Shown piece after piece: positions 1 through 48,415 of a DNA stretch of 48,415 nt; position 1 is the stretch's first letter, and the number at the start of each line of letters is the position of its first letter. The translations under genes were made by a program, and so were the position numbers. This DNA comes from a virus. The notes under the pieces are model-generated. The model did no database searches, had not been told where the DNA came from, and saw nothing but the letters and a program-made list of their open reading frames with translations. The DNA is taken from positions 1 to 48,415 of the IMG/VR virus record IMGVR_UViG_3300045988_036789; one strand, given 5' to 3'.

Positions 1-986
1 AGCGCACCAGCACCACCGCCGGAAGTGTCGTGGAAACACGAACCCCGGAAAGGCAGTCTTTCGCCGTTGTTTCTTGCCCAAAATCTACCCGGCGTTGTCT
101 GCGCACTGTCTGGGAATAATCCTGCTGCAATTAAAATCTGCGGAATACTTACGCCGCTTGCTGCCTTTACGTCCTTGAAAGGCTGGCTTGTATCGTTGCT
201 GTCGGTTGTCTGTGTTGTAACTGACGTGTTAATGCGCAGTGTTGCGTCACTGGCGCTGGTTCTGTCAATCTTTAATGTTCCAACTGTTCCCGGTGCAACA
301 AGTGTGCCGTCCGGCTTAATTGCTTTCCACTCTGTACTATTTGCACCCATGTTGCAATCAGACTTCATGGCGTTTCCGTATGGTATAATCTGGATTTCAC
401 CATCTACGCAGCGCAGACCAGATACCCACTCCCAGCAGTTGCCGCAAAGGTCAGCAATTCCAGCCGGGCTGCCGTCGTGGTTCCAAGTTACCGGACCAGA
501 ACCAGTTGCAGTTCTGCCGCCGCCGTGTGAACCATCAATATATGTGTTGATACCCTTTTCATAGCCCTTTTCATAGCTTCTGTCCCAGTTTGTGTTTCCA
601 CGGGGCGTGAAGCCATTTTTCATGCACCAAAGGTTGATTGCGGCAAATACGCCGTTCTGGTTAAGGTGCCAGCCCTCACCCTTTCTGCGGCATACTGCAA
701 GTGCTGTGTCAAAGTCAATGTATGCTTTAGGGTCTTTCAGTGCTAAAGAGTATGCACGGTCATTGACTACGGTGTTAATGTACTTAGACACCCAGATAAC
801 TTCTTTCTCTACCCCGTCAATTTTCCACCACGGCAATACTTCCTGTGTGCCGCCTGTGATTAAGTCGGAATATTTCATTTTTGGAATACCCACCATAATT
901 GACGGCATACCCAAATCATCAAACTTTACTGCATTGTTGCCGCCAAAGGAAGCAACCGCCATGCTTAAATCATCAAAATTAGACAT
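1..986 (-). CDS. DGR target protein 2 (variable FGE-sulfatase/C-type-lectin-fold protein), 5' 986 nt of a 1,053-nt CDS that continues into 48360..48294
   Basis: Own minus-strand translation is open from ATG at 986..984 (GGAGGT RBS at 1002..997) to position 1: MSNFDDLSMAVASFGG...CRRKGEGWHL...LCGNCWEWVSGL...LPFRGSCFHDTSGGGAGAL. It is a paralogue of 35529..36551. It is missing from the ORF track because it runs off the window edge. Confidence 0.85.
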   Translation of the reverse strand, partial: MSNFDDLSMAVASFGGNNAVKFDDLGMPSIMVGIPKMKYSDLITGGTQEVLPWWKIDGVEKEVIWVSKYINTVVNDRAYSLALKDPKAYIDFDTALAVCRRKGEGWHLNQNGVFAAINLWCMKNGFTPRGNTNWDRSYEKGYEKGINTYIDGSHGGGRTATGSGPVTWNHDGSPAGIADLCGNCWEWVSGLRCVDGEIQIIPYGNAMKSDCNMGANSTEWKAIKPDGTLVAPGTVGTLKIDRTSASDATLRINTSVTTQTTDSNDTSQPFKDVKAASGVSIPQILIAAGLFPDSAQTTPGRFWARNNGERLPFRGSCFHDTSGGGAGA

Positions 987-2343: not shown

Positions 2344-3345
2344 TTATAGCTTCCGGGTGCTTCCACACGGCTTGACGCCGTATGAATACCCCATTGCCTG
2401 CGTGTTGGTTCCCACGGTGCCGCCCTGTGTCTTCTGCACCGTGCTTCTTTCTGGGACGGTTCCTGTTGCCGGAACCGTGAAGCTGTATGCTTCCACCGTG
2501 TCAGCCATTGTGACTGCTGCCCCGTCTGTTTGCCCTCTGGTGTTCCTCTGCGGCTCTTCTCCGGCTCTTATTCGTCCGGCTGGTGTATTTGTATACCCAA
2601 ACACGTTCAATGCCGTGTCTGCGTCAATATGCGCCGCCTGCTGCGCAAATACAGTGCTTCTATATGGCACCGTGCCTGCTGCTGGTGCTGTGAATATAAA
2701 CCCGGCTGCTTCTGTACCCACAATGAATGTGTCCGCACCTATGCCGCCCCTTGTGTTCCTTTGCGGGTGTGTTCCGGCTTTTAATCTTCCGGTCATTGGT
2801 GTTTTATACTTGAAATACTCACCGTGGGTGTATATGACCCCGTGGACTTGTCCTTGATAGGTTAATTCGTCCATGTGTGCTGATAATCTCTTGTACATTT
2901 TCACCGCCCGGATAATAGCTGCATAATCTGCCGTGATTTTCTGGTTTGTCACGTCAAGAATAATATGAAAGTGTCCGGGTTCTCCCTCATACTGGAACCA
3001 CTCTTCAACCTCGCTTTCTGGAAATAAGCTGCCCAGTGCTGTTTCAATGGCGTATTTCGTACCCATCTTCTTATGAACCTTGACACTGTTTTTCACTAAA
3101 TCCCGTTTTGCTTCCAGCGGGTAATTGTAGTCGTACCAGTCAACGTGCATATCGTATGCCAGAATGTCCACCAGTTCTTCCGGCAGCTCGTCAAATCTGG
3201 AATAAATCAAAACTGTGTCCATTATCCCGGAAGTGTCCAGAAGTGCTGCTGCTGTGGCGTTTGCCAATGCAACCATTTTGTGGTCTTTTTTTAGTGCTTC
3301 TGGCAGGCAGTCTGAATAGTCGGCATTGTAAATTGTATTAGACAT
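2344..3345 (-). CDS. baseplate/tail protein I-like (P2 gpI family) with C-terminal ~72-aa tandem repeat
   Basis: N-terminal half (LPEALKKD...DILAYDMHVDWYD...KRDLVKNSVKVHKKMGTKYAIE) is gpI-like. Start MSNTIYN follows GGAGGT. It lies downstream of gpJ. Confidence 0.65.
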   Translation of the reverse strand: MSNTIYNADYSDCLPEALKKDHKMVALANATAAALLDTSGIMDTVLIYSRFDELPEELVDILAYDMHVDWYDYNYPLEAKRDLVKNSVKVHKKMGTKYAIETALGSLFPESEVEEWFQYEGEPGHFHIILDVTNQKITADYAAIIRAVKMYKRLSAHMDELTYQGQVHGVIYTHGEYFKYKTPMTGRLKAGTHPQRNTRGGIGADTFIVGTEAAGFIFTAPAAGTVPYRSTVFAQQAAHIDADTALNVFGYTNTPAGRIRAGEEPQRNTRGQTDGAAVTMADTVEAYSFTVPATGTVPERSTVQKTQGGTVGTNTQAMGYSYGVKPCGSTRKL

Positions 3346-4480
3346 TTTCAATACCTCCATTCAGAATGTTTTGATTTCCCAGTTTCGCAACCTTTATATC
3401 ATCAACCACCGCAAATGCTGGCTTTCTGACTTCAACACGTTTCACGCCTGCTTCCATCAGCTTTGCTGTAAGATATGACGGGTTAATGTCACGCCCCATC
3501 TTGCTTGTTTGCCACTCCACGTACTCTTCAACCGCCTGTTTTGCCGCCGCTGCAATTACCGTGGCGCTTGCTGCGTCCGGTTGTGGAATGTAAAAGGTCA
3601 CGTCAATGTCAAATGGTACTGTTTCCGGCACTGATACTGTCACTATATCTGTCAGCGGTCGAACGTCAGAAGCGTTCAGCGCTGTTTCAATTTCTTTCAG
3701 AACTGCTTCTGTTGCCTGCTGTCCTTTCTGCAAAAGCACCCGGACGTCTACCACGCAGGCTTCCGGGCTTGTCACTGCCACGTCTGCCACTGCTGGTGAC
3801 ACAGACTTTGTAAAATAGATATATCCGTTGATAGGTCCAGCCGTGCTGAAACTCTCCATACTCTCACGCATACGCTCATAATAGCTGGCGTCGTCCTCTT
3901 CTTCCGCTCCACCGCTTGTGGCTGTTATGTTCTCCGCTTTCTGGTAGTAGTCGTATAAGTCAACCAGTTCTTTGACCTGCCCCGCTGCCAGATTGTTTCC
4001 AACCTCTCCGGCAGTAGTACAAACGCCCTCAACGTCCCCGTATGTCTGCCCGGCTTTGATTTCCAGATTTTCTTTTGTTTCAAACAGAATTGCACCGTCA
4101 AAAGAAATTCTGGTGCCCGCAGGAATAATCACTGATTGTGCCTGCGCCTGTGATATGTAAAAGCGGAACATTGCGGACGCCGGACTTGCTGGCAATCTTT
4201 CCAAATCCTTGAATAATTCTGCCAAGCTGTCCAAGTATTCACCGTCCGCATATCGTGGCACGTTCTTTTTTGCTGTTTCATTGATTATGACACGCTGTTG
4301 CACAATGATATTTGCAACCCATGATATGAAAAGTCTTTCCGGTGACGCTGGGTACACTTTGTAGCGTTCACGCCCCGGCACCTGCTGCACAAAGTTTTCA
4401 TATAGCGCAATCAAGTTACTTTCTATGGTTTCCGTGTCCGTTTCCACAAAATCAACGTCCGGGTATTTTCTGTCACTCAT
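3338..4480 (-). CDS. baseplate J-like protein
   Basis: 380 aa, located between the gpW/gp25-like and gpI-like genes. Order and size match the P2 gpJ family. Confidence 0.75.
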   Translation of the reverse strand: MSDRKYPDVDFVETDTETIESNLIALYENFVQQVPGRERYKVYPASPERLFISWVANIIVQQRVIINETAKKNVPRYADGEYLDSLAELFKDLERLPASPASAMFRFYISQAQAQSVIIPAGTRISFDGAILFETKENLEIKAGQTYGDVEGVCTTAGEVGNNLAAGQVKELVDLYDYYQKAENITATSGGAEEEDDASYYERMRESMESFSTAGPINGYIYFTKSVSPAVADVAVTSPEACVVDVRVLLQKGQQATEAVLKEIETALNASDVRPLTDIVTVSVPETVPFDIDVTFYIPQPDAASATVIAAAAKQAVEEYVEWQTSKMGRDINPSYLTAKLMEAGVKRVEVRKPAFAVVDDIKVAKLGNQNILNGGIENV

Positions 4481-33507: not shown

Positions 33508-34244
33508 TCACCCCTCATTCTTCTTTCAATTCTTTCTTTCGCCTGCTGCACCTCTCTTGAATACTCTGTTTCTGTCAATCCTTTGTTCCATACGTGTTCA
33601 TAAGCACCAGTAACACCGTAGTTGTAGGCTGTCAGCACTTCTGCTTCTGTGTCGAACCTCTCTTGCAGTTCTGCCAGATAATCTACACCGACAAGCACGT
33701 TGAAATATGGATTTTCCATATTATCGACATTCAGCCTGCGCATACGCTCTTTGTGCCACTTCGGCAATACCTGCATATATCCGGTTGACCCCTCTTTGCA
33801 GCTTGCGTCCCATCTGTACCCGCTTTCTATCTCGATAATTGCCAGCACCAGCGTATACTCAACGCCATACTGCTTGCAGATTATGTATGTGTACTGCTGC
33901 ATACATTCCGGTAAATACCCGCCGTTGTCTGCGTAGTCCTCCGGCACTTCATAGCGTGTCCAGCCGTCCAGTGCTTCCCCGTCCCAGTCAAATGACATAA
34001 GGTTGAACGGGTACGCTTCCGCTTCTTCTGTGGTGCTTCCTGTCGGCTGTGTGGTCTGTACTGGTTCCGGTGTGTTCTTCGGCAGTGTGCTTGCTGTCGG
34101 CTTTACTGCCGCACCTACCACAGCCACGCACACAATGAATACCAGCACGCCTGCTGCAATGTAATTTCCGTATGCCTTAATTGCTCTTTTTATCCTCTTA
34201 CGCCTTAATATCCTGCGCAGCCTTGTTTTTCTTCCTGTTTCCAC
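33501..34244 (-). CDS. membrane-anchored lytic transglycosylase (SLT domain)
   Basis: N-terminal TM segment; AIIEIESGYRWDASCKEGSTGYMQV is the catalytic E-S ... GYMQ motif. Confidence 0.75.
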   Translation of the reverse strand: METGRKTRLRRILRRKRIKRAIKAYGNYIAAGVLVFIVCVAVVGAAVKPTASTLPKNTPEPVQTTQPTGSTTEEAEAYPFNLMSFDWDGEALDGWTRYEVPEDYADNGGYLPECMQQYTYIICKQYGVEYTLVLAIIEIESGYRWDASCKEGSTGYMQVLPKWHKERMRRLNVDNMENPYFNVLVGVDYLAELQERFDTEAEVLTAYNYGVTGAYEHVWNKGLTETEYSREVQQAKERIERRMRGEW

Positions 34245-35253
34245 TTCGTTTTCCTCCTTGTCCTGCCTTTTTTGGCTCTTTTTTCCACATTTTCAAGTAA
34301 ATATGCCACCCGGTCTGTTCATAAAAGACCGCTTCACATGACACAATGTTGTAATTGCTATATATCTTTCTGAACTCTTCCAGCCCTGCGTCCGGTGATT
34401 TTGCCAGCTGTTCCACTTTTCTTTTGCTGTACTTAAAATCATTGCACTTTTCTTCCGGTGCGTTCAGATTTCGGCTGTATTTCCAGTGGTTCTGGTCACG
34501 CTGCTGTTTCTCCCCGCTGTCCTCTCTGGTTGTTTCCGGGCGGTCAAGGTTTCTGCTGCTGGAATAGCGTTTCTTTCCCTGCGGGTCCTTGACAATATAC
34601 TTGCAAAGTCCCTCTATTCCGTTTTCATTCATTTGCAGGCGGTCTGCGTTCACCCAGCCCATCTGCTTTATACTGGCTCTGTATTCCGGGTCTTTTGTCT
34701 TTTTCCAGTTAATGCGGTCTTTTGTCCACATTAGTTCCACGTCGTCACGGTCAAGCCCGCCATTCATAATGATGTGGTGATGTATACGCTTTAGGCACTG
34801 CCCGTCCTTGCTGTATTTGTATTCTGTTACCAGTATGTATTTAAGGGGTTCAAGCCCCAGTTTATTTCTGCGGTACGCTATGCGGCGCAGGTAGTTTGTC
34901 ACTATCTTTTCTGCTTCTTCGACTGTTTCCGGCAGGTTCTCTGCGTCATAGGTGCATGACGTGTGCAGGTCCCCTATGTGGAAGTTGCCATTTCCCAGCT
35001 GCACCAGATACCGTTTGGCGTTCTTGTCGTTAAGGTCTTTTTGCTTTGGGGCATTGACTTTTCTTTTCTTACCCCTCTTCCCTCTGGCTGCCTGCTCTGC
35101 TGCTTCTGTTCGTGGTATTATGTCCACTTCTCTATAATTGGCACAGTCTGTCTTCTTCTCTCTGATAAACACCACTGCACTTCCTTTTCTGTCTGATACC
35201 TTTTTCAGCGTATAAGGGTACACCAGAAGTGGGGTGGTTCTATCCTCCATCAA
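34198..35253 (-). CDS. rolling-circle replication initiator (HUH endonuclease, P2 gpA-like role)
   Basis: LHTSCTYD (motif 1-like), RIHHHIIMNG (HUH), GLCKYIVKD (catalytic Tyr motif). Confidence 0.6.
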   Translation of the reverse strand: MMEDRTTPLLVYPYTLKKVSDRKGSAVVFIREKKTDCANYREVDIIPRTEAAEQAARGKRGKKRKVNAPKQKDLNDKNAKRYLVQLGNGNFHIGDLHTSCTYDAENLPETVEEAEKIVTNYLRRIAYRRNKLGLEPLKYILVTEYKYSKDGQCLKRIHHHIIMNGGLDRDDVELMWTKDRINWKKTKDPEYRASIKQMGWVNADRLQMNENGIEGLCKYIVKDPQGKKRYSSSRNLDRPETTREDSGEKQQRDQNHWKYSRNLNAPEEKCNDFKYSKRKVEQLAKSPDAGLEEFRKIYSNYNIVSCEAVFYEQTGWHIYLKMWKKEPKKAGQGGKRSGNRKKNKAAQDIKA

Positions 35254-35378
35254 TCCTGTTTATTATCCATACAGCGTATATATATTTATATATTTCGTAG
35301 GAATGTTAATACCCCATACAAGCCCGTTTAGCAGGGATAAAACCCGCTATTTTCAAGGACTTTTCAGCCCTAAAATGT

Positions 35379-35407
35379 TTGACTTGTAACCGCCAATATG
35401 GTATAAT
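35379..35407 (+). promoter_or_regulatory. near-consensus orphan promoter (TTGACT, 17 nt, TGgTATAAT)
   Basis: -35 at 35379..35384, extended -10 at 35399..35407. No plus-strand CDS downstream. Confidence 0.5.
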
Positions 35408-35442
35408 AAACATGTATTGAATTATTAACATATTGACTTTTG

Positions 35443-35488
35443 AAAAGCCTTTGATTTTGTGTTTCCGGCACAGCTTCAAAGGCTTTTT
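35443..35488. terminator. bidirectional intrinsic terminator
   Basis: AAAAGCCTTTGA-21 nt-TCAAAGGCTTTT, with A/T tracts on both sides. Lies 41 nt past the stop of the DGR target 1 gene. Confidence 0.6.
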
Positions 35489-35528
35489 GCTTGCCATTTT
35501 TCTTTGTTCAATTTAGAACGTCTGTTTG

Positions 35529-36551
35529 TTATGCGTGTGCTTCCGCACCCGCTTTCAGTAAATCAGTTACCAGTTGCCAGCTTTCCAAAAACAAAGCGGA
35601 ACGGAACGAAGCGAAGTCGTGGACGCAAGAACGGGGGGAGCTCAAGCCCAGCGCACCAGCACCACCGTCGGAAGTGTAGCTGAAACACGAACCCCGGATA
35701 GGCACGGCTTCTTCAAGTTCGCTGTCTGCCCATATTCCGGCTGTTTCGTTCTTCCAATCGTGCGGTACAATTCCCAGCTTGTACGCAATTTCCGGCACGT
35801 CTTCCAACTCTTCCAGCTGCAATTCTGCAATGTGGCAGCCGTCCCAGTCCTTTTCTATCTTTTCTGCGGTTGACATAACCACGCCGCCGTCACTGCTGCC
35901 GTACAGCTTCAATGGCTTTCCGTTTATCTCTGCAACGGTCCAGTCCGGGGCTTCGTCTTTGTAGCCCTCCACTGCTGCGTCATTGTCCTTTGTGTACTCC
36001 ACAACGCCTTTGTGCAGGCGTAAGCCCGTTACAAATTCCCAGAAGTTGCCGCAGATACCGAACACGCCGCCTGCGGTTCCGTCATGTGACCATGTAAGCG
36101 GGTCACACCCGGTCAGTGTTCTTCCGGCGCTGTCGTATACAACGCCCTTTTCCTGCGGGTTGTCTGCATTGCTTCCGTGGTTCGTGTTGCCGCCTATCGT
36201 GTGCCCCAGTTCTTCCGCTTCATGTAGCAGATAGACAAATTCCGTGTTTGTCATAAGGTGCCAGCCCTCACCCTTTCTGGCGCAGGCTGCCGCCGCTTCA
36301 TCAAGTGTGATTGTGTGGCGTGGCTGCTGGTACGGCAGGGACACTGCAACGTCACCGCCCATGCTTTTCATTGTTGTGTTGTGGTACTGTGAAATCAGAA
36401 TTGCCGGAACAATCTTGTTTCTGATTTTGAACATTTCCGGCACGTCCTCCGGGTTGTACGTCCCCGGCTCCATGTAAAACATGGTCATGTAGTTTGGCAG
36501 TCCCAGTCTGTCTTTGACAATGACCGCTTTTTTCTTCACAAATTCTTTCAT
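35529..36551 (-). CDS. DGR target protein 1 (remote; FGE-sulfatase/C-type-lectin-fold variable protein)
   Basis: 340 aa; ARKGEGWHLMTNTEF...ICGNFWEFVTGL...PIRGSCFSYTSDGGAGALGLSSPRSCVHDFASFRSA. The C-terminus carries VR1. Confidence 0.9.
   Translation of the reverse strand: MKEFVKKKAVIVKDRLGLPNYMTMFYMEPGTYNPEDVPEMFKIRNKIVPAILISQYHNTTMKSMGGDVAVSLPYQQPRHTITLDEAAAACARKGEGWHLMTNTEFVYLLHEAEELGHTIGGNTNHGSNADNPQEKGVVYDSAGRTLTGCDPLTWSHDGTAGGVFGICGNFWEFVTGLRLHKGVVEYTKDNDAAVEGYKDEAPDWTVAEINGKPLKLYGSSDGGVVMSTAEKIEKDWDGCHIAELQLEELEDVPEIAYKLGIVPHDWKNETAGIWADSELEEAVPIRGSCFSYTSDGGAGALGLSSPRSCVHDFASFRSALFLESWQLVTDLLKAGAEAHA
35594..35707 (-). repeat. DGR variable repeat VR1
   Basis: 114-nt alignment to the TR has 16 mismatches. 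15 are at TR adenines and 1 is non-adenine (35611). Confidence 0.9.
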
Positions 36552-36654: not shown

Positions 36655-36792
36655 CTATGCTGACCGCTGCTTTTTCTCTTCCGGCTCCGGCTGCTTCACA
36701 GTCACGGTGACTTTTACGCCCTCCCGCTGTGAAATAATCATTGCCAAAGTGTCAAAGAAGCGCTGGGCATTGAATGTTCCTTGCACTTCCAT
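36655..36792 (-). CDS. small hypothetical protein (45 aa, not in the ORF track)
   Basis: Own translation MEVQGTFNAQRFFDTLAMIISQREGVKVTVTVKQPEPEEKKQRSA after GGAGGTGG. Confidence 0.35.
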   Translation of the reverse strand: MEVQGTFNAQRFFDTLAMIISQREGVKVTVTVKQPEPEEKKQRSA

Positions 36793-36804
36793 TCCCGCCA
36801 CCTC

Positions 36805-36966
36805 CTATGCCGTCTGTGGCTGCGGTGTGGTTCTCTGGCGCTCCTGCTGAATACCCAGCATATAGCCCAGAATAAACATTTGATTGTCGCCATTTAACTT
36901 CTGGAACTCCTGTGCGGTCTTCTCAATCATTTCTTTTTTCTTATCTTCCATTGCAACTGCTGCCAT
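36805..36966 (-). CDS. small hypothetical protein (53 aa)
   Basis: Inner start MAAVAMEDKKKEM after AAGGAGGAA. Confidence 0.45.
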   Translation of the reverse strand: MAAVAMEDKKKEMIEKTAQEFQKLNGDNQMFILGYMLGIQQERQRTTPQPQTA

Positions 36967-37060
36967 GCTCGTTTCCTCCTTTTCTGTGTTGTGGTCCTCT
37001 GCTATACTTGAACTGTCAGCCAATGCAGGGCTGGCAATTCATAGCAAAGGGGGTGTTGTT

Positions 37061-37225
37061 ATGGGTTATGTGAAATCTGGAACCGTGCCGGGCAAGGGTG
37101 ACTATATCTGTATCAAATGTAATACCGTAAACCGTGTATACTCTGATAGCCAGACGCTTTTTGTGTGCCCTCGCTGTGGCGGTTCTGATTTTCAAAAGTT
37201 GTGGTCTTCTGGGTCCAGCAAGTAA
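37061..37225 (+). CDS. zinc-ribbon protein (54 aa)
   Basis: MGYVKSGTVPGKGDYICIKCN...CPRCGGSDF after AAGGGGGTG. Confidence 0.5.
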   Translation: MGYVKSGTVPGKGDYICIKCNTVNRVYSDSQTLFVCPRCGGSDFQKLWSSGSSK

Positions 37226-37395
37226 ACCTTGCGCCAGAATGTATGACCGAACCAGCTGAACCAGATAGCAACATATTTTCTCATGTCTTGCAGGTGTTCC
37301 GGGTCTGGTGCGCTTCCAAACTCCGTGTACTGCAAGCGTGGGAAAATTGCTAAAACATAGCGGAAAAAGTGATTATATAGAAATCTCTTTGCCAT
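37192..37395 (-). CDS. hypothetical protein (67 aa), first gene of the leftward early operon
   Basis: Inner start MAKRFLYNHFF after GGAGGTGG; downstream of the leftward promoter. Confidence 0.4.
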   Translation of the reverse strand: MAKRFLYNHFFRYVLAIFPRLQYTEFGSAPDPEHLQDMRKYVAIWFSWFGHTFWRKVYLLDPEDHNF

Positions 37396-37463
37396 CTGCT
37401 GCCACCTCCGTTCTTTTTTGTTCCACCAACTCATTTTATGTTTCTCTGTTGGTTGATAGGCTT

Positions 37464-37492
37464 ATCATAGCATTGTTTTGTTGGTCTGTCAA
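37464..37492 (-). promoter_or_regulatory. leftward early promoter (TTGACA, 17 nt, TATGAT)
   Basis: -35 is the reverse complement of 37487..37492; -10 is the reverse complement of 37464..37469. The palindrome GTTGGTCTGTCAAC (37480..37493) overlaps the -35. Confidence 0.55.
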
Positions 37493-37524: not shown

Positions 37525-37553
37525 TTGACTAACACATTTTCTTGTTGTATAGT
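37525..37553 (+). promoter_or_regulatory. rightward promoter of the repressor gene (TTGACT, 17 nt, TATAGT)
   Basis: Back-to-back with the leftward promoter; 32 bp separate the two -35 boxes. Confidence 0.55.
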
Positions 37554-37589: not shown

Positions 37590-38078
37590 ATGGAAGTTTA
37601 CGAACGAGTGCGATTATTAAGAAAAGATACTTTGAAAATGAGTATGGAAGCATTTGGAAAACGTCTGGGTGTCAGTCGTGATGTTATTAACAATATTGAA
37701 CATAACCGACTTGCGAAGCCGGACCAGAAATTGTCATTATATAAATTGATATGTAGTGAATTTAATATCAGTGAAGAATGGCTGCTGAATGGCACTGGTG
37801 ATATGTACGCCAGCAATGAAGCTGAATACAGCGCACTTATTGACCGGGTAATGACCGGGCAGAATGAGTTTGCAAAGAACATTTTCAAGACGTTTGCGCT
37901 TTTTGATGAAGCAGACTGGGAAGCGCTGCGGCGTATGATTGATAAATACATAGACGTTGCAGACGCAGAAGACGTGCCGGAAGAAAAGCCATTGTATGAC
38001 GACGTACCGGACACACCGGAAGAATTAGAAAAGCAATGCCCGCCAGCTGATAGCGGCGGCAATAGTGACGTTGGGTAG
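37590..38078 (+). CDS. XRE-family HTH transcriptional regulator (CI-like repressor candidate)
   Basis: RVRLLRKDTLKMSMEAFGKRLGVSRDVINNIEHNR is an HTH_3 pattern. Transcribed divergently from the early operon and upstream of the integrase. Confidence 0.8.
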   Translation: MEVYERVRLLRKDTLKMSMEAFGKRLGVSRDVINNIEHNRLAKPDQKLSLYKLICSEFNISEEWLLNGTGDMYASNEAEYSALIDRVMTGQNEFAKNIFKTFALFDEADWEALRRMIDKYIDVADAEDVPEEKPLYDDVPDTPEELEKQCPPADSGGNSDVG

Positions 38079-38324
38079 TCCCCCTAAAGGGACGCCCAGC
38101 GGTCCCGCTTTACTTTTTAATGATTAGTTGTGTCGTTCCTGTGAAGTTAAGATTGATATACATTGTGTTGTTGCTGCTGTAATAAATAGCAAATATATTA
38201 TGGTTGCTATGATATATGTATTTCTTTTTCATTATCTCCCACGACCTTTCTTTTATCGGAAAAGCTGGGCGCTTTTCAATTATAAAGGTCTGGCAGGTTC
38301 ACAACTACTGTTAAAAATTGGCAA

Positions 38325-38402
38325 TAAAAACACCCGCAGTGCTGGGAACACTCCGGGTGCGGTGCAAAGATATATCATACCAGATACAACATACCGTCTG
38401 CA
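38325..38402 (-). ncRNA. candidate small RNA (~75 nt), antisense to the int upstream region
   Basis: Extended -10 TGATAATAT (reverse complement of 38409..38417). Terminator CCCGGAGTG-7 nt-CACTGCGGG plus TGTTTTTATTG (38357..38322). Contains UUGUAUCUGGUAUG. Confidence 0.3.
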
Positions 38403-38465
38403 CTTATTATATTATCACGGCATGACGGGAAATAAAAGGAAATTGACAAGAATTGTGGTGATATT

Positions 38466-39836
38466 ATGAGGAATAAGAAAATTGCCCCGGCGCTTGTCCG
38501 GGTTGCTCTATATATAAGGGTTTCCGGTGAAGAACAAAAGATAAAAGGCTTGTCACTGGAAGCCCAGCAAGAACGGCTGGAAGCATACGCAAGGGAACGT
38601 GGCTGGGTCATTGTTGGGATTTATATTGACGCCGCAAAGACCGCCAGAAAGAACATTCACAAAAGAACTGAATTTCAACGCATGATGGACAGCGTGAAGC
38701 GTGATGAAGTGGACATTTTGCTTTTTGCCCGCCTTGACCGCTGGTTTCGTTCCGTTGCTGATTATTACAAAGTTATGGAAATATTGCAGGCGCACAACTG
38801 CGACTGGAAGACCACTGATGAAGAGTACGACACGACAACCGCAAACGGGCGTCTGTATATCAATGTGAAGCTGTCCATTGCGCAGAATGAAGCCGACATA
38901 GACGGTGAAAGAATAGACGTGGTGTTTGACAGCAAGATTGCGCACGGCACCGTTGTTTCCGGTTCTGCTCCGTTCGGTTTCCGTGTGAATGAAAAAAAGC
39001 GGCTGGAAGTCGTACCGGAAGACGCAGCCATTGTGCAAGACGCTTTTAATTATTTTGAAAACACAGTTTCCCAGCGGGCTACTGTTCGTTATATCCGGGA
39101 AACATACGGCGTGAACTGGTGTGACGCCACATTTCGGCGTATGCTGAAAGAAAAGCTGTACACTGGCGTGTATGACCGGGGCGGCAGATATAATGACCAA
39201 TTCTGCCCGGCAATCATAAGCAGACAGCAGTTTGACCGTGTGCAAGCGCTTCTGACACGCAATGTGCGTTCCGCTCCATCTGGCAAGGTTTATATTTTCA
39301 CTTCCATTCTGACTTGTGCTGAATGTGGGCACAAACTTGTTGGCTACAAATCCAGTGATTATTTTTATTACCGCTGCAACCAGCATTTCCAGCGTGGGCG
39401 CTGCTCTCATAATCATTCAGCCCGTGAAGACGTTGTGGAACAATGGCTGTTTGAACACTTAGGGGAAGAACTGGAACGCTACCAGCTTGAATGGGACGTG
39501 GAAGCAGCCAAAAAGAAAGCGTCCGTTGCCCGGACTGACAAAGCCGCACTGAAACGGAAGCTGACTAAATTAAAAGAACTGTATGTGAATGACCTTATCG
39601 ACATTGAAGACTATAAAAAGGACTATCAAATATATGTTTCTGCACTGAACCAGATACCGGAACCAGCGCAGGAAGCACCGCCAGACTTTGCAGCTGTGCG
39701 CAGGCTTCTTGATAATAGCTTTAGAACCATTTATGATACTTTGACCCGTGAAGAAAAACGCACGCTTTGGCGTTCGGTCATTAAAGAAATAAGAATTGAC
39801 AATGACCAGAATATCACGGGTGTTGTTTTTGGGTAG
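38466..39836 (+). CDS. int: large serine recombinase (integrase)
   Basis: Resolvase-type N-terminus ALYIRVSGEEQ...LSLEAQ, recombinase domain, Zn-ribbon CAECGHKL...YYRCN, C-terminal coiled coil. Confidence 0.9.
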   Translation: MRNKKIAPALVRVALYIRVSGEEQKIKGLSLEAQQERLEAYARERGWVIVGIYIDAAKTARKNIHKRTEFQRMMDSVKRDEVDILLFARLDRWFRSVADYYKVMEILQAHNCDWKTTDEEYDTTTANGRLYINVKLSIAQNEADIDGERIDVVFDSKIAHGTVVSGSAPFGFRVNEKKRLEVVPEDAAIVQDAFNYFENTVSQRATVRYIRETYGVNWCDATFRRMLKEKLYTGVYDRGGRYNDQFCPAIISRQQFDRVQALLTRNVRSAPSGKVYIFTSILTCAECGHKLVGYKSSDYFYYRCNQHFQRGRCSHNHSAREDVVEQWLFEHLGEELERYQLEWDVEAAKKKASVARTDKAALKRKLTKLKELYVNDLIDIEDYKKDYQIYVSALNQIPEPAQEAPPDFAAVRRLLDNSFRTIYDTLTREEKRTLWRSVIKEIRIDNDQNITGVVFG

Positions 39837-39888
39837 TGTTGTACTAATTGAACACTACCCGTGGGCTGTGTTAAGTTAGTACAAAATA

Positions 39889-39935
39889 AAGAACCCCAGC
39901 AAGGTTGTTGCCTACCGGGGTTCTTCTTTTTATTT
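39889..39935. terminator. bidirectional intrinsic terminator between int and the convergent early genes
   Basis: AAGAACCCC-19 nt-GGGGTTCTT followed by CTTTTTATTTT, with a T-rich tract on the other strand as well. Confidence 0.6.
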
Positions 39936-45698: not shown

Positions 45699-46148
45699 CT
45701 ATGGTTCTTTCGGCTTTGACAAAGCAAAATCATTTGTGCGCATACACTCTTTGTATATTTCCAGTATGTATTCATGCGCAACATCAACTTGCCCATTAGT
45801 CAACTTGCGGTCTTTGATGTACTTGTCATACTTTGCCAGTATGTCAATGATATGGTCGAACTCTTCTTTTGTATGGCGTCTGTGATTTATGCAACTGCTC
45901 TGAAATTCCAGAATTTCCATACGCCAGCTGTCAACCTTGTGGTCTGTAAAGTCTTTTTGCAGCTGGTCCAGTTGTTCTTTCATGTCGTGGTTCATAAGAT
46001 TTCCCAGCTGTTTAATCAACCAACGCACGGGCTGTACTTTAATTCCCGGCGTTATGTCAATAACAATCCCAATTCCCGCAAGCCATACAATAGCTTTCTG
46101 TACCATTTCCCAGACGTCCGCTGGGTTAAGCGTCTGTATTGCTTCCAC
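45699..46148 (-). CDS. hypothetical protein with N-terminal TM segment
   Basis: ORF track; lies between the RT gene and the lysis genes. Confidence 0.5.
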   Translation of the reverse strand: MEAIQTLNPADVWEMVQKAIVWLAGIGIVIDITPGIKVQPVRWLIKQLGNLMNHDMKEQLDQLQKDFTDHKVDSWRMEILEFQSSCINHRRHTKEEFDHIIDILAKYDKYIKDRKLTNGQVDVAHEYILEIYKECMRTNDFALSKPKEP

Positions 46149-47340
46149 TGTCCGTCACCTCCTTTTCTTCTGGCTGCTTGATATAATCATCAGTGCTGCC
46201 GTAATATCCGCAGAATAGACCGCATTTGCTGGCTGTCTTCTTCTCCGGTTCTGGATATGGCTTGCCCATTTCCTGCAAGTACAGTTCGTTTAGACTCTGG
46301 CGCATACCGTAGCTGTTGAAATGCTGTAATATGCCCCGATATGAAGCAACGGACCTATCCAGTGTATCTTTGTCAATCTCTCCTGCGTGATATGCTGCAA
46401 ACATATATTTCAATCTACGTTTCAGCTTCTTTGCCGTCTTCTTACGCAATTTTATGTGTGTTGACCAAATGCGGAAGCCTACAAACTCAATGCCCATGCT
46501 GGTTGGTCTTATGCAAGTTTTCTTGTTAAGCTGCAAATGCAGCTTGCTTCCCAGAAAGTCCGCAATTTTGTTCTTTATCTTTTCCAGATACTTTTTGTCT
46601 GGGTGTAAAATAATAATGTCGTCCATATAGCGTATGTAATAATGCAGGTGCAGTTTGTGTTTGCAGAACTGGTCAAGTTCATTTAAGTACAAATTTGCAA
46701 ACATTTGTGAAGTCAGATTGCCAATAGGCAGCCCAACTTCTCCCAGCAATTCATCAAACGCCACGTCGCCAATGTCGGCACCCAGCGGCAGACCAAAGTT
46801 TGTGTCTTCGCAGTTTATTATTACTGACAAGACGTGCAACAAATCTTCATCAGCAATCTTCTTCCGCAAAATACCCATCAATACTTCATGGTCTATCCGG
46901 TAAAAATACTTTGCAATATCCAGTTTTAAATAATAGAAACGCTGCGGCTTCCGGTCAGTCTGCTTCAACCAATCATGCAGGCGGTTGACTGCTTTGTGTG
47001 TTCCCCTGCCTACTCTGCAAGCGTAGCTGTCAGAAATGAACTGCTTTTCAAAATATGGGTTCAGCTGGCTATATATAGCGTGCTGCGCCACCCGGTCTTT
47101 GAAAGTGAGTGACATAATCATGCGCTTTTTCGGCTCATAAACATAAAATATGTTGTAGCGCCCCACGGTGTAGGTCTGCCAGATAAATTCATTCTGTAAT
47201 TCAATCAAGTTTTCTTCCAGCTTATCCGTGTACGCCATCACATCTGGTCTGTACCTCTTGCACTTTATCCCGGCTTTGTACGCATTGAAAAGATTTTCAA
47301 AGTCGTAAATCATAGGGAAAATGTTTTTGATTTTGTGCAA
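46126..47340 (-). CDS. DGR reverse transcriptase
   Basis: YIRYMDDIIIL (YxDD), LPIGNLTSQMFANLYL (DGR-type I/LGxxxSQ), N-terminus FENLFNAYKAGIKCKRYRPD. Start uncertain: TTG 47340 after GGAGGG, or ORF-track 47379, or ATG 47313. Confidence 0.9.
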   Translation of the reverse strand: MHKIKNIFPMIYDFENLFNAYKAGIKCKRYRPDVMAYTDKLEENLIELQNEFIWQTYTVGRYNIFYVYEPKKRMIMSLTFKDRVAQHAIYSQLNPYFEKQFISDSYACRVGRGTHKAVNRLHDWLKQTDRKPQRFYYLKLDIAKYFYRIDHEVLMGILRKKIADEDLLHVLSVIINCEDTNFGLPLGADIGDVAFDELLGEVGLPIGNLTSQMFANLYLNELDQFCKHKLHLHYYIRYMDDIIILHPDKKYLEKIKNKIADFLGSKLHLQLNKKTCIRPTSMGIEFVGFRIWSTHIKLRKKTAKKLKRRLKYMFAAYHAGEIDKDTLDRSVASYRGILQHFNSYGMRQSLNELYLQEMGKPYPEPEKKTASKCGLFCGYYGSTDDYIKQPEEKEVTDSGSNTDA

Positions 47341-47601
47341 TTCCCTTTTCCCTCCTGTTGTTAAAATTTCGCCGTACAAATCAAACTGCGGTTCTTCCGC
47401 AGCCCAAACGTGATATATACATTCAGTGCCAGTGTTTCCGGCTCTGACTTTCAGCCTGTGGCTTACTAACTATCTTTACGGCAATTCAATATTTTTCCTA
47501 CGGCTCCCGGCTGGCAGCCTTTGGAATGGAAATAAACCCCTTTAACCCAAATGCACTGGACGTGTCCACTTGTGGGCACGACTACGGGCAAATATGGGGT
47601 G

Positions 47602-47715
47602 AAGCGGAACGGAACGAAACGTTGTTGTTGACGTTAGAACGGGGGTTGTTCAAGTTCAGCGCACCAGCACCACCGTTGGAAGTGTTGTTGAAACTCGAAC
47701 CCCGGATAGGCACGG
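47602..47715 (-). repeat. DGR template repeat (TR)
   Basis: 114 nt. The coding-sense strand has 23 A, including 10 AAC codons. It aligns to VR1 and VR2 with adenine-specific mismatches. Confidence 0.9.
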
Positions 47716-47769
47716 CAAGTCCTCTATTAACGGCTTATTCCCATAATATAAAAAGCAGGTGTTACCCTG

Positions 47770-48213
47770 CTATTTACCATCTTTCTTCTTTGTGGTTTCA
47801 CTGCCGTTTATTGAGTTGAAATAACCGCCTATCATGCGTCCTATTTCATTTATTTTTCTTGACATTATTTCATACTTTTTCATTGGCAAACATGGTTTCT
47901 TGCTTCTTGTATATTCTGGGTCAGCTGCAAGCCTTACCAAATGTCTTAATGTATCAACTTCGTTGTCAAGTTCTCCCAGCGTCGTTTTCTTGTAATGTTT
48001 GTTTTCAAGCGCCACAACCAGACGCAGGACATCAAGCATTGAACTGTCAATTTTCTTTGCAAGTTCTCTTTTCGCTCTCGGAAATTCTTCAAGCTGTGGT
48101 CCTGCATATAATAACAATTCATATACTTTATTTTTCATTTTGAAGTCTTCCTGCGTCGCATTGTCCTGCACATTGTCCAGCTGTGGCATTTGCTCTGCTG
48201 TGTTTTCCGGCAT
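47770..48213 (-). CDS. avd: DGR accessory variability determinant (Avd-like)
   Basis: 147-aa basic helical protein (YELLLYAGPQLEEFPRAKRELAKKIDSSMLDVLRLVVALENK). Located between the target gene and the TR. Confidence 0.75.
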   Translation of the reverse strand: MPENTAEQMPQLDNVQDNATQEDFKMKNKVYELLLYAGPQLEEFPRAKRELAKKIDSSMLDVLRLVVALENKHYKKTTLGELDNEVDTLRHLVRLAADPEYTRSKKPCLPMKKYEIMSRKINEIGRMIGGYFNSINGSETTKKKDGK

Positions 48214-48245: not shown

Positions 48246-48267
48246 GGGGCTTACTGCCGTAAGCCCC
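48246..48267 (-). terminator. 9-bp-stem, 4-nt-loop hairpin downstream of VR2 (terminator and/or DGR target-recognition hairpin)
   Basis: GGGGCTTAC-tgcc-GTAAGCCCC, 37 nt past the VR2 3' end. On the minus strand it is followed by TATTTTG. Confidence 0.6.
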
Positions 48268-48293
48268 ACAGTATAACAGTTCCCAGTTTCCAG

Positions 48294-48415
48294 TTATTCC
48301 ACAAAAGCGGAACGGAACGAAACGTTGTAGTCGACGAAAGAACGGGGGTTGCGCAAGTGCAGCGCACCAGCACCACCGCCGGAAGTGTCGTGGAAACACG
48401 AACCCCGGAAAGGCA
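48294..48415 (-). CDS. 3' end of DGR target protein 2 (continues from 1..986 across the circular junction)
   Basis: Reading frame is continuous: ...GAGALHLRNPRSFVDYNVSFRSAFVE, stop TAA at 48296..48294. 48361..48415 duplicates 1..55. Confidence 0.85.
   Translation of the reverse strand, partial: PFRGSCFHDTSGGGAGALHLRNPRSFVDYNVSFRSAFVE
48305..48415 (-). repeat. DGR variable repeat VR2
   Basis: 111-nt alignment to the TR has 13 mismatches, all at TR adenines. Confidence 0.9.

Follow-up and report, generated by a model that had tools for sequence, protein, structure and literature searches.

The virus record IMGVR_UViG_3300045988_036789, analysed here over a stretch of 48,415 nucleotides (nt; "the window"), is the complete circular genome of a temperate gut phage, 48,360 bp in length, its circularity following from a 55-nt terminal overlap in which the first 55 nt repeat the last (1..55 = 48361..48415). 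A single diversity-generating retroelement (DGR) in this genome almost certainly serves two genes: one adjacent to the DGR cassette, and a remote one of 340 codons at 35529..36551 on the minus strand, whose variable repeat (VR), here VR1, would be a genuine and evolutionarily active second target. The two-target layout has already been published in related gut phages, and the window is a further case of it; a novel point is that the coding sequence of the protein takes in the DGR recognition element at VR1, made up of AACTG heptad repeats and a GRNA hairpin, so that the element is itself translated. The whole explanation that we consider best, and that we hold with moderate confidence, is that the remote gene is a second acceptor of the single DGR, is expressed early, and plays a role distinct from that of its tail-end paralogue.

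VR1 (35594..35708, minus strand) matches the template repeat (TR; 47602..47716, minus strand, between avd and the reverse transcriptase (RT) gene) over 115 nt without gaps and encodes residues ~282–319 of the remote target protein. A model-generated first-pass annotation of the same DNA had likewise described a full-length alignment, although it gave its length as 114 nt and its end as 35707. Its count of 15 substituted adenines among the 23 in the TR is borne out by our tally: the 16 differences in 115 nt comprise 15/23 adenine sites and 1/92 non-adenine sites, an enrichment with a Fisher p of 3e-12. Differences spread beyond TR adenines, which that annotation had raised as the counter-case, are therefore essentially absent, with the single exception of that one site in 92. 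Near-identity to the TR with differences essentially at TR adenines is what defines a VR, and VR1 displays both; the AAY-rich TR and the placement of the VR in the C-terminal region of a fold of the C-type-lectin (CLec) kind, both marks of membership of this class, are also found. Read in frame, the TR contains 10 AAC codons together with ATC, AGT and ACT codons and encodes AVPIRGSSFNNTSNGGAGALNLNNPRSNVNNNVSFRSA. The VR of the adjacent target, VR2 (48305..48415, minus strand), matches the TR over 111 nt, of which the last 55 recur at 1..55, and differs from it at 13/23 adenine sites and at no non-adenine site inside the homology. Its changes occupy partly different adenine sites from those of VR1 and involve different substituted bases, in agreement with the earlier suggestion that the two patterns differ. 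In close relatives the TR is 95–100% conserved and the VRs vary.

The same relationship holds across the lineage. We paired TR, VR1 and VR2 in 13 genomes, namely 11 IMG/VR contigs with integrase- and RT-anchored loci, the window, and Clostridium phage Saumur. In this set VR1 differs from its own TR at 154/301 adenine sites and at 8/1194 other sites, four of those eight lying at the 5′ boundary of the homology. Where a lineage has non-adenine changes of its own in the TR, VR1 and VR2 of the same genome carry them too, and by all indications the three repeats are in concerted evolution. VR1-type proteins, whether compared as orthologues at 56–95% identity or within single 90%-identity clusters, some of which hold thousands of member sequences, carry four to nine alleles at TR-adenine codons only, a level of variation equal to that of VR2-type proteins. 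Outside the VR, the remote target gene is under purifying selection (dN/dS = 0.06–0.37); its protein has 238 homologues, and the open reading frame (ORF) is intact in more than 200 homologues. A decayed duplicate, which the first-pass annotation had itself named as a way in which its reading could fail, is excluded on the strength of these dN/dS values and intact frames. Given the adenine-specific differences, the cis-elements described below, the concerted evolution and the hypervariable orthologues, its proposal that one TR serves two targets stands.

The single non-adenine difference between TR and VR1 (plus-strand 47619 A versus 35611 G, that is, T to C in the sense strand and Val to Ala in the protein) is present as first described, but its earlier placement within the segment for initiation of mutagenic homing (IMH) seems to carry no significance of that kind. 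We considered and rejected the idea that it reflects an IMH/IMH* difference: none of the other 12 genomes mismatches at this position (position 98 of the repeat), and other genomes carry TR-specific changes at the nearby positions 103 and 108 that are common to both VRs. Because position 98 matches elsewhere and the changes at 103 and 108 sit in both VRs, the mismatch does not look like an IMH feature. Most simply, this change, found in this genome only among the 13, is a point mutation or a rare RT error. An assembly chimera of VR1 and VR2 was also rejected, as the two repeats have different flanks and more than 40 contigs, as well as the genomes of two cultured phages, show the same layout. 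As a separate observation, the database protein P0204 (566 aa) begins as a VR2-type protein and continues as a Rep (PF23343), and it is itself most likely a metagenome assembly chimera formed via the repeat common to VR1 and VR2.

Beyond the repeats themselves, VR1 and VR2 share a target-recognition module that the TR lacks. At each VR, the TR homology ends in 20 adenine-free nucleotides and is followed by a spacer of 37–41 nt and then by a hairpin. The spacers, at 35553..35593 for VR1 (IMH-like, minus strand) and 48268..48304 for VR2 (minus strand), carry AACTG repeats in the pattern CTGG.AACTGG.AACTG....ACTG, which is absent at the TR; the motif CTGNNAACTGNNAACTG occurs genome-wide only at the two VR flanks, with 0.11 chance matches expected. 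The GC-rich hairpin, or cruciform, of VR1 (35533..35552, minus strand) reads GCGGGTGC-GGAA-GCACACGC in the sense strand and that of VR2 (48246..48267, minus strand) GGGGCTTAC-GGCA-GTAAGCCCC, each with a stem of 8–9 bp and a 4-nt loop of the GRNA type; as DNA, the VR1 hairpin folds with -8.6 kcal/mol (z = -4.7). Over 24 distinct VR1 and VR2 flanks, 90.7% of hairpin cells are paired and seven of nine pairs show compensatory changes, a covariation that 0/500 shuffles equalled, with slid controls reaching 31–46% pairing. The stem at VR1 of Saumur has been fully re-coded (GTGGGCGT/ACGCCCAC). In the Bordetella phage system BPP-1, a GC stem of 7–10 bp with a GRNA loop is required and sufficient for targeting (Guo et al., 2011; PMC3240598), and VR1 possesses the corresponding set of features, an IMH-like 3′ element followed by a GC stem within that range and a 4-nt GRNA loop.

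What sets the remote copy apart is that this module lies in frame within the ORF. The VR1 spacer encodes LFLESWQLVTDLLK, and the module as a whole encodes a C-terminal helix, LFLESWQLVTDLLKAGAEAHA; at VR2 the module follows the stop codon (48294..48296), with the spacer and the hairpin both mostly 3′ of it. The spacer repeats are kept whether they are coding, as at VR1, or non-coding, as at VR2, and the pentamers recur with a 7-nt period both in the window, as AACTG, and in the Faecalibacterium phage FP_Lagaffe, as ATCTG (L128, from 22564 and from 32707). These patterns suggest that the pentamer-repeat spacer may be a sequence-specific recognition element, of which we found no description in the paper on BPP-1 target sites (PMC3240598). 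Spacer and hairpin together would give a concrete, mutable definition of the DGR acceptor site in this family, useful for engineering DGR targeting.

The comparison with BPP-1 (mtd-avd-TR-brt; PMC3240598) can be drawn further. The two systems share the order of the cassette, adenine mutagenesis, an AAY-rich TR, a C-terminal VR in a CLec fold, and, downstream of the VR, an IMH region and then a GC-rich hairpin whose loop is a 4-nt GRNA. They differ in that BPP-1 has a single target whereas the window has two acceptor sites, in that the remote spacer and hairpin of the window are embedded in coding sequence, and in that the hairpin of the window stands 37–41 nt from the end of the TR homology, slightly past the 4–34 bp range for BPP-1. 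The BPP-1 target element was defined by experiment; homing in the window is predicted from sequence comparisons.

The remote target protein is, by prediction, a soluble 37-kDa single-domain protein with a C-type-lectin/formylglycine-generating-enzyme (FGE) fold resembling TaqVP, the monomeric, single-domain variable protein of a Thermus aquaticus prophage DGR (5VF4; PMC6328139). Its gene has a GGAGG ribosome-binding site (RBS), and the protein falls in phrog_2889, a family to which no function is assigned, as does the adjacent target. No Pfam family is matched by the protein at E <= 0.01, the gathering threshold of FGE-sulfatase (PF03781) not being reached, and a few homologues have precomputed PF03781 assignments. 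A profile of orthologues matches TaqVP (PDB 5VF4) with E = 4e-29, VR aligned on VR. AlphaFold2 run with a shallow alignment of 37 close orthologues gave a pLDDT of 42 and was discarded; after VR2-type paralogues were added, for 87 sequences, the model reached a pLDDT of 90.2 and a pTM of 0.92. Foldseek with this model returns TaqVP (TM-score 0.81, E = 5e-27), then PvdO, Mtd and TvpA, so that the C-type-lectin/FGE fold anticipated by the first-pass annotation is supported at the level of prediction; in BFVD, "tail collar fiber" is the annotation of many of the structural matches. No transmembrane segment or signal peptide was detected in the protein. Relative to TaqVP, the resemblance extends over the full length by profile and by predicted fold, with the VR at the C-terminus in both, at ~25% identity; TaqVP differs in being encoded next to its cassette, and the window protein has an extra C-terminal helix from the recognition element. 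The published labels attached to these genes ("hypothetical protein", "host metabolism: formylglycine-generating enzyme", "SUMF1/EgtB/PvdO nonheme iron enzyme") are misleading.

The remote and adjacent targets are paralogues, as had been proposed, sharing 34% identity between residues 14–323 and 23–350 (E = 1e-43). Their first ~90 residues, described earlier as differing, are indeed divergent but are not unrelated, being alignable from residue 14 onward; what the remote target does lack is the N-terminal ~10–20 residues of the VR2 type. When protein bodies are compared with the VR removed, each remote copy among the window, Saumur and Lagaffe is closer to the other remote copies than to anything else in the set, and the adjacent copies behave likewise. 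As the copies group by position in this way, the duplication predates these genera and both copies have been retained.

For the timing of expression the evidence is positional. The remote gene lies, as stated earlier, between a rep gene of the HUH/rolling-circle type (34198..35253, minus strand; PF23343) and the immunity region, which starts with a helix-turn-helix (HTH) repressor gene (37590..38078, plus strand; Pfam), and downstream of a leftward early promoter-like site at 37464..37492 (minus strand; TTGACA-17-TATGAT, extended TG) that faces a repressor promoter-like site of opposite direction (37525..37553, plus strand). Three small minus-strand ORFs (within 36655..37434) intervene, at 37434..37192 (80 aa), 36966..36805 (53 aa) and 36801..36655 (45 aa), the latter two with GGAGG ribosome-binding sites, and counterparts of these small ORFs are called in relatives; the remote target is thus the fourth minus-strand gene of the leftward operon and the last before rep. 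Our scan of the minus strand found no terminator-like site between the leftward promoter and the target, and no sigma-70-like promoter between 36552 and 37464. The order of integrase, HTH repressor, small ORFs, target and Rep is kept in relatives at 58–95% protein identity and also in Saumur, where the counterpart of the target is annotated as hypothetical, and FP_Lagaffe mirrors the position of the target. Rep is the next gene downstream in every relative examined, and the target is present in nearly all integrase-anchored loci that reach far enough upstream. It is probable, then, judging from position, that the remote target is expressed in the early operon.

Some features that the first-pass annotation had attributed to the gene do not belong to it. 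The hairpin at 35443..35488, taken for its own bidirectional terminator, folds well but is part of a rep-leader segment (35254..35501) common to relatives, in most of which an extra 61-aa ORF lies between the target and this hairpin; in the present genome the target has a 103-nt leader and this hairpin downstream. A search of the window against Rfam gave no match at gathering thresholds, and chance-level matches only near the rep-leader hairpin. Of the two alternatives offered for expression, early is plausible by position, whereas lysogeny-associated expression fits poorly with the lack of a separate promoter, the position of the gene behind the repressor-facing promoter, and its non-sporadic distribution. 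The distance of about 12 kb between TR and VR1 holds on the circle; in the integrated prophage, whose attachment site (att) lies at ~39.87–39.93 kb, it becomes about 36 kb.

In the mechanism that we propose, TR RNA would be transcribed from the cassette between the tail and lysis genes, as established DGR biology would have it, and RT–Avd would copy it with adenine-specific misincorporation, yielding cDNA that could replace either of the two VRs. Homing would thereby randomise up to 13 codons (10 AAC, ATC, AGT and ACT) in the C-terminal part of the protein, where it aligns with the VR through which TaqVP binds its ligand. Going by its position, the remote target would most likely be made early after infection or induction and be repressed in the lysogen, and the paralogous VR2 protein would be made with the tail genes. 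The remote copy would then be a diversifiable binder with a role distinct from that of the tail-end receptor-binding paralogue, probably one exercised inside the infected cell. The parts of this proposal are not equally firm. That the remote target has a role outside the virion is a nearly balanced question for us, with the scales tipped slightly towards the negative. A more specific version, in which an early, cytoplasmic, DGR-diversified binder would act in intracellular phage–host conflict, for example by neutralising variable host defence or takeover targets, is offered tentatively. Several observations weigh against the proposal. The full-length paralogy with the tail-end target and the "tail collar fiber" annotations in BFVD would favour a possible virion role; early timing and cellular location are deduced from gene order and consensus scans; operon transcription could be more complex than assumed, given an antisense zinc-ribbon ORF described below; and most relatives have a G.A mismatch in the hairpin of VR1, so that homing there might be less efficient.

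The alternatives differ chiefly in where the remote protein would act and when its gene would be expressed. It may be a second virion-borne receptor-binding or adhesion protein whose gene merely chances to lie outside the late module, and which with the VR2 protein broadens or doubles the exploration of host range, as Gulyaeva et al. (2024; PMC11792537) suggest for the two Lagaffe targets; beyond the paralogy and the BFVD annotations already mentioned, the predicted fold is that of the phage receptor-binding proteins Mtd and TaqVP. A gene for a tail fibre or receptor-binding protein would be sought in the late structural module, however, and the remote target is strictly kept in the early operon just before rep, in no structural module among the contexts examined. 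Its lack of the VR2-type N-terminal residues, and the separation of remote and adjacent copies into old lineages, which argues for distinct roles, also count against a second virion protein, and we regard this alternative as possible though on balance doubtful.

A different view would make the remote gene a moron, or lysogenic-conversion gene, with a promoter and terminator of its own, expressed from the prophage for superinfection exclusion or host benefit. Its location near the immunity region and the prophage end (~3–4 kb from att), its GC content (0.53 against 0.46 for the genome), and the leader and downstream hairpin seen in this genome would accord with that idea. The autonomous promoter and terminator and the sporadic distribution that characterise morons are nonetheless not found: the minus-strand scan between 36552 and 37464 is empty of sigma-70-like promoters, the hairpin is the conserved rep-leader segment with another ORF interposed in most relatives, the gene occurs in nearly all suitable integrase-anchored loci, and a surface role receives no help from a protein that has neither signal peptide nor transmembrane segment. 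We judge the moron reading improbable. Least probable of all, and to our mind very unlikely indeed, is that VR1 is a relic past mutagenic retrohoming, either a decayed duplicate or a repeat kept alike by ordinary recombination or gene conversion with the TR or VR2. The one non-adenine mismatch in this genome and the mismatched base pair in the VR1 hairpin stem are what such a relic might show; yet the frame is intact and under purifying selection, the differences from the TR fall almost entirely at adenines in 13 genomes, a pattern that recombination would not produce, near-identical orthologues are as hypervariable as VR2-type proteins are, and the recognition hairpin is upheld by compensatory changes.

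These results extend a series of earlier reports. Wu et al. (2018; PMC5758913) found that many DGRs associated with phages have two targets within a prophage, one adjacent and one non-adjacent, and a 2025 paper in Nature described four species of gut prophage in which a second, distal VR lies near counter-defence genes, the distal VRs of gut temperate phages adjoining non-structural genes such as a DNA methyltransferase (PMC12629997). The window resembles the prophage DGRs of these two surveys in having one target beside the cassette and another at a distance in the same prophage, no more than 50 kb away. The surveys do not describe the lineage of the window, the paralogy of its targets, the early-operon position before rep, or the embedded cis-element, and the four species of the latter are mostly phages of Bacteroidota. 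Closer still is FP_Lagaffe, for which Gulyaeva et al. (2024; PMC11792537) reported a second VR, found its two targets to be homologous, and saw signals of hypermutation at each of them. In C. clostridioforme LM41 phi3, two "FGE" ORFs (13 and 71), Avd and RT are listed, the ORFs not being recognised as targets (PMC11318856). By megablast against phage genomes, only a partial match to Saumur is obtained, and tblastn is needed to reach Lagaffe.

Like the window, FP_Lagaffe and Lagaffe_CP place their one RT–Avd–TR cassette behind the tail genes and beside an FGE/CLec target. FP_Lagaffe also shares the paralogous second target in the early region after the lysogeny module, gp40, which precedes recombination and replication genes, and VR/TR differences at adenines, which in Lagaffe are the only sites of difference in both VRs; the VR of gp40 (NC_047911) has 11/25 adenines changed and 0 other changes. 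FP_Lagaffe nevertheless belongs to a different genus and infects a different host, with ~32–35% protein identity; its remote VR is internal and followed by a C-terminal extension of ~118 aa, unlike that of the window; its flank repeats are ATCTG rather than AACTG; its downstream neighbours are an exonuclease and recombination genes in place of the HUH Rep; and its integrase is IS30-like, that of the window being a serine recombinase. Two-target phage DGRs of the tentaclin/Hoc-like type, whose second target is not a tail protein (PMC10743442), likewise use one TR for two CLec-domain proteins of one phage, with the differences that both targets lie inside the cassette and that the second protein, built of an N-terminal CLec domain and Ig domains, is proposed to be anchored in the virion.

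Should the cytoplasmic binder prove real, it would parallel, in a phage, the cytoplasmic "antigen sensors" diversified by DGRs that have been proposed for bacteria, and the retention of the remote copy since before the split of the Lagaffe-like and Saumur-like genera, always heading the replication genes, would reflect its separate role. Independently of this, the lineage offers a clean, abundant and conserved case for the question, raised in PMC10743442, PMC11792537 and PMC12629997, of what non-tail, non-adjacent phage DGR targets do. It combines one TR with two CLec proteins, each a single domain and paralogous to the other, and its remote copy is fixed just before the replication gene; public data hold thousands of its natural VR variants; and cultured or inducible relatives exist in Clostridium phage Saumur (Enterocloster clostridioformis), LM41 phi3, and FP_Lagaffe (F. 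prausnitzii, Blautia).

Almost all genes of the window are on the minus strand. The canonical DGR cassette of adjacent target with VR2, bAvd, TR and RT lies downstream of baseplate genes (phrog_6 at 3338..4480 and phrog_14404 at 2344..3360), and endolysin and holin genes come after it. The adjacent target gene, complement(join(48294..48415, 56..986)), encodes 350 aa (phrog_2889, E = 2e-119) and is joined across the circular junction, its 5′ part occupying 1..986 on the minus strand, downstream of the baseplate genes. The contig was closed or broken inside VR2, which places the assembly junction in a hypervariable repeat and splits the adjacent target gene over the two ends of the window. The bAvd accessory gene is at 47770..48213 (minus strand; PF22296, E = 6e-20) and the RT gene at 46126..47379 (minus strand; PF00078, E = 5e-23). 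The motif [ILV]GxxxSQ is the mark of DGR RTs, and the RT has it as IGNLTSQ (residue 219), with YMDD following at residue 251; the same element thus holds Avd together with an RT (RVT_1) of the DGR type, with both the [ILV]GxxxSQ and the YxDD motifs.

The 3′ flank of the TR (47540..47601, minus strand) is unlike either VR flank and contains a short conserved stem; the flank, CACCCCAT...GTCGTGCCCAC-AAGT-GGACACG...GGGTTAAAGGGG, is conserved between the window and the TR flanks of the loci L048–L127. By eye, the flank alignment shows compensatory substitutions in this stem across relatives; folding of 47540..47601 by itself gave no significance. The stem probably belongs to the structured portion of the DGR RNA that takes part in priming.

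The immunity/lysogeny module (37590..39836, plus strand) consists of the repressor and a serine integrase (38466..39836, plus strand; Pfam). Since prophage-form relatives lose homology to the window at 39867 and circular-form contigs run on to ~39930, att is located just past the integrase, at ~39867..39930. The left ends of prophage-form relatives (L001, L130 and L131) sit at the 3′ end of a gene that encodes an ABC-transporter ATPase (PF00005) and overlaps the end of the integrase gene, which suggests that the 3′ end of this PF00005 gene is the attB site.

The early operon around the remote target is also a hotspot of accessory genes of the counter-defence type: in Saumur (L003, 45258..46406) the gene directly upstream of the target is PAPS-reductase-like, and other relatives (L129, L130) have DNA methyltransferases a few genes downstream of rep. 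The zinc-ribbon ORF referred to above is a plus-strand mini-gene of 56 aa (CxxC...CxxC; ~37058..37225) with its own RBS, antisense within the leftward operon, where it and the 80-aa ORF converge; the relative L015, which has a 200-bp indel at window positions 36990..37191, lacks it. Finally, the segment 35379..35495 on the plus strand contains a strong rightward sigma-70-like promoter match (TTGACT-17-TATAAT, extended TG, 11/12), followed by the 35443..35488 hairpin and a T-run. It is conserved in relatives, has no Rfam match, and could produce a countertranscript of ~80 nt antisense to the leader of the rolling-circle-type rep gene, by analogy with rolling-circle-replicating plasmids.

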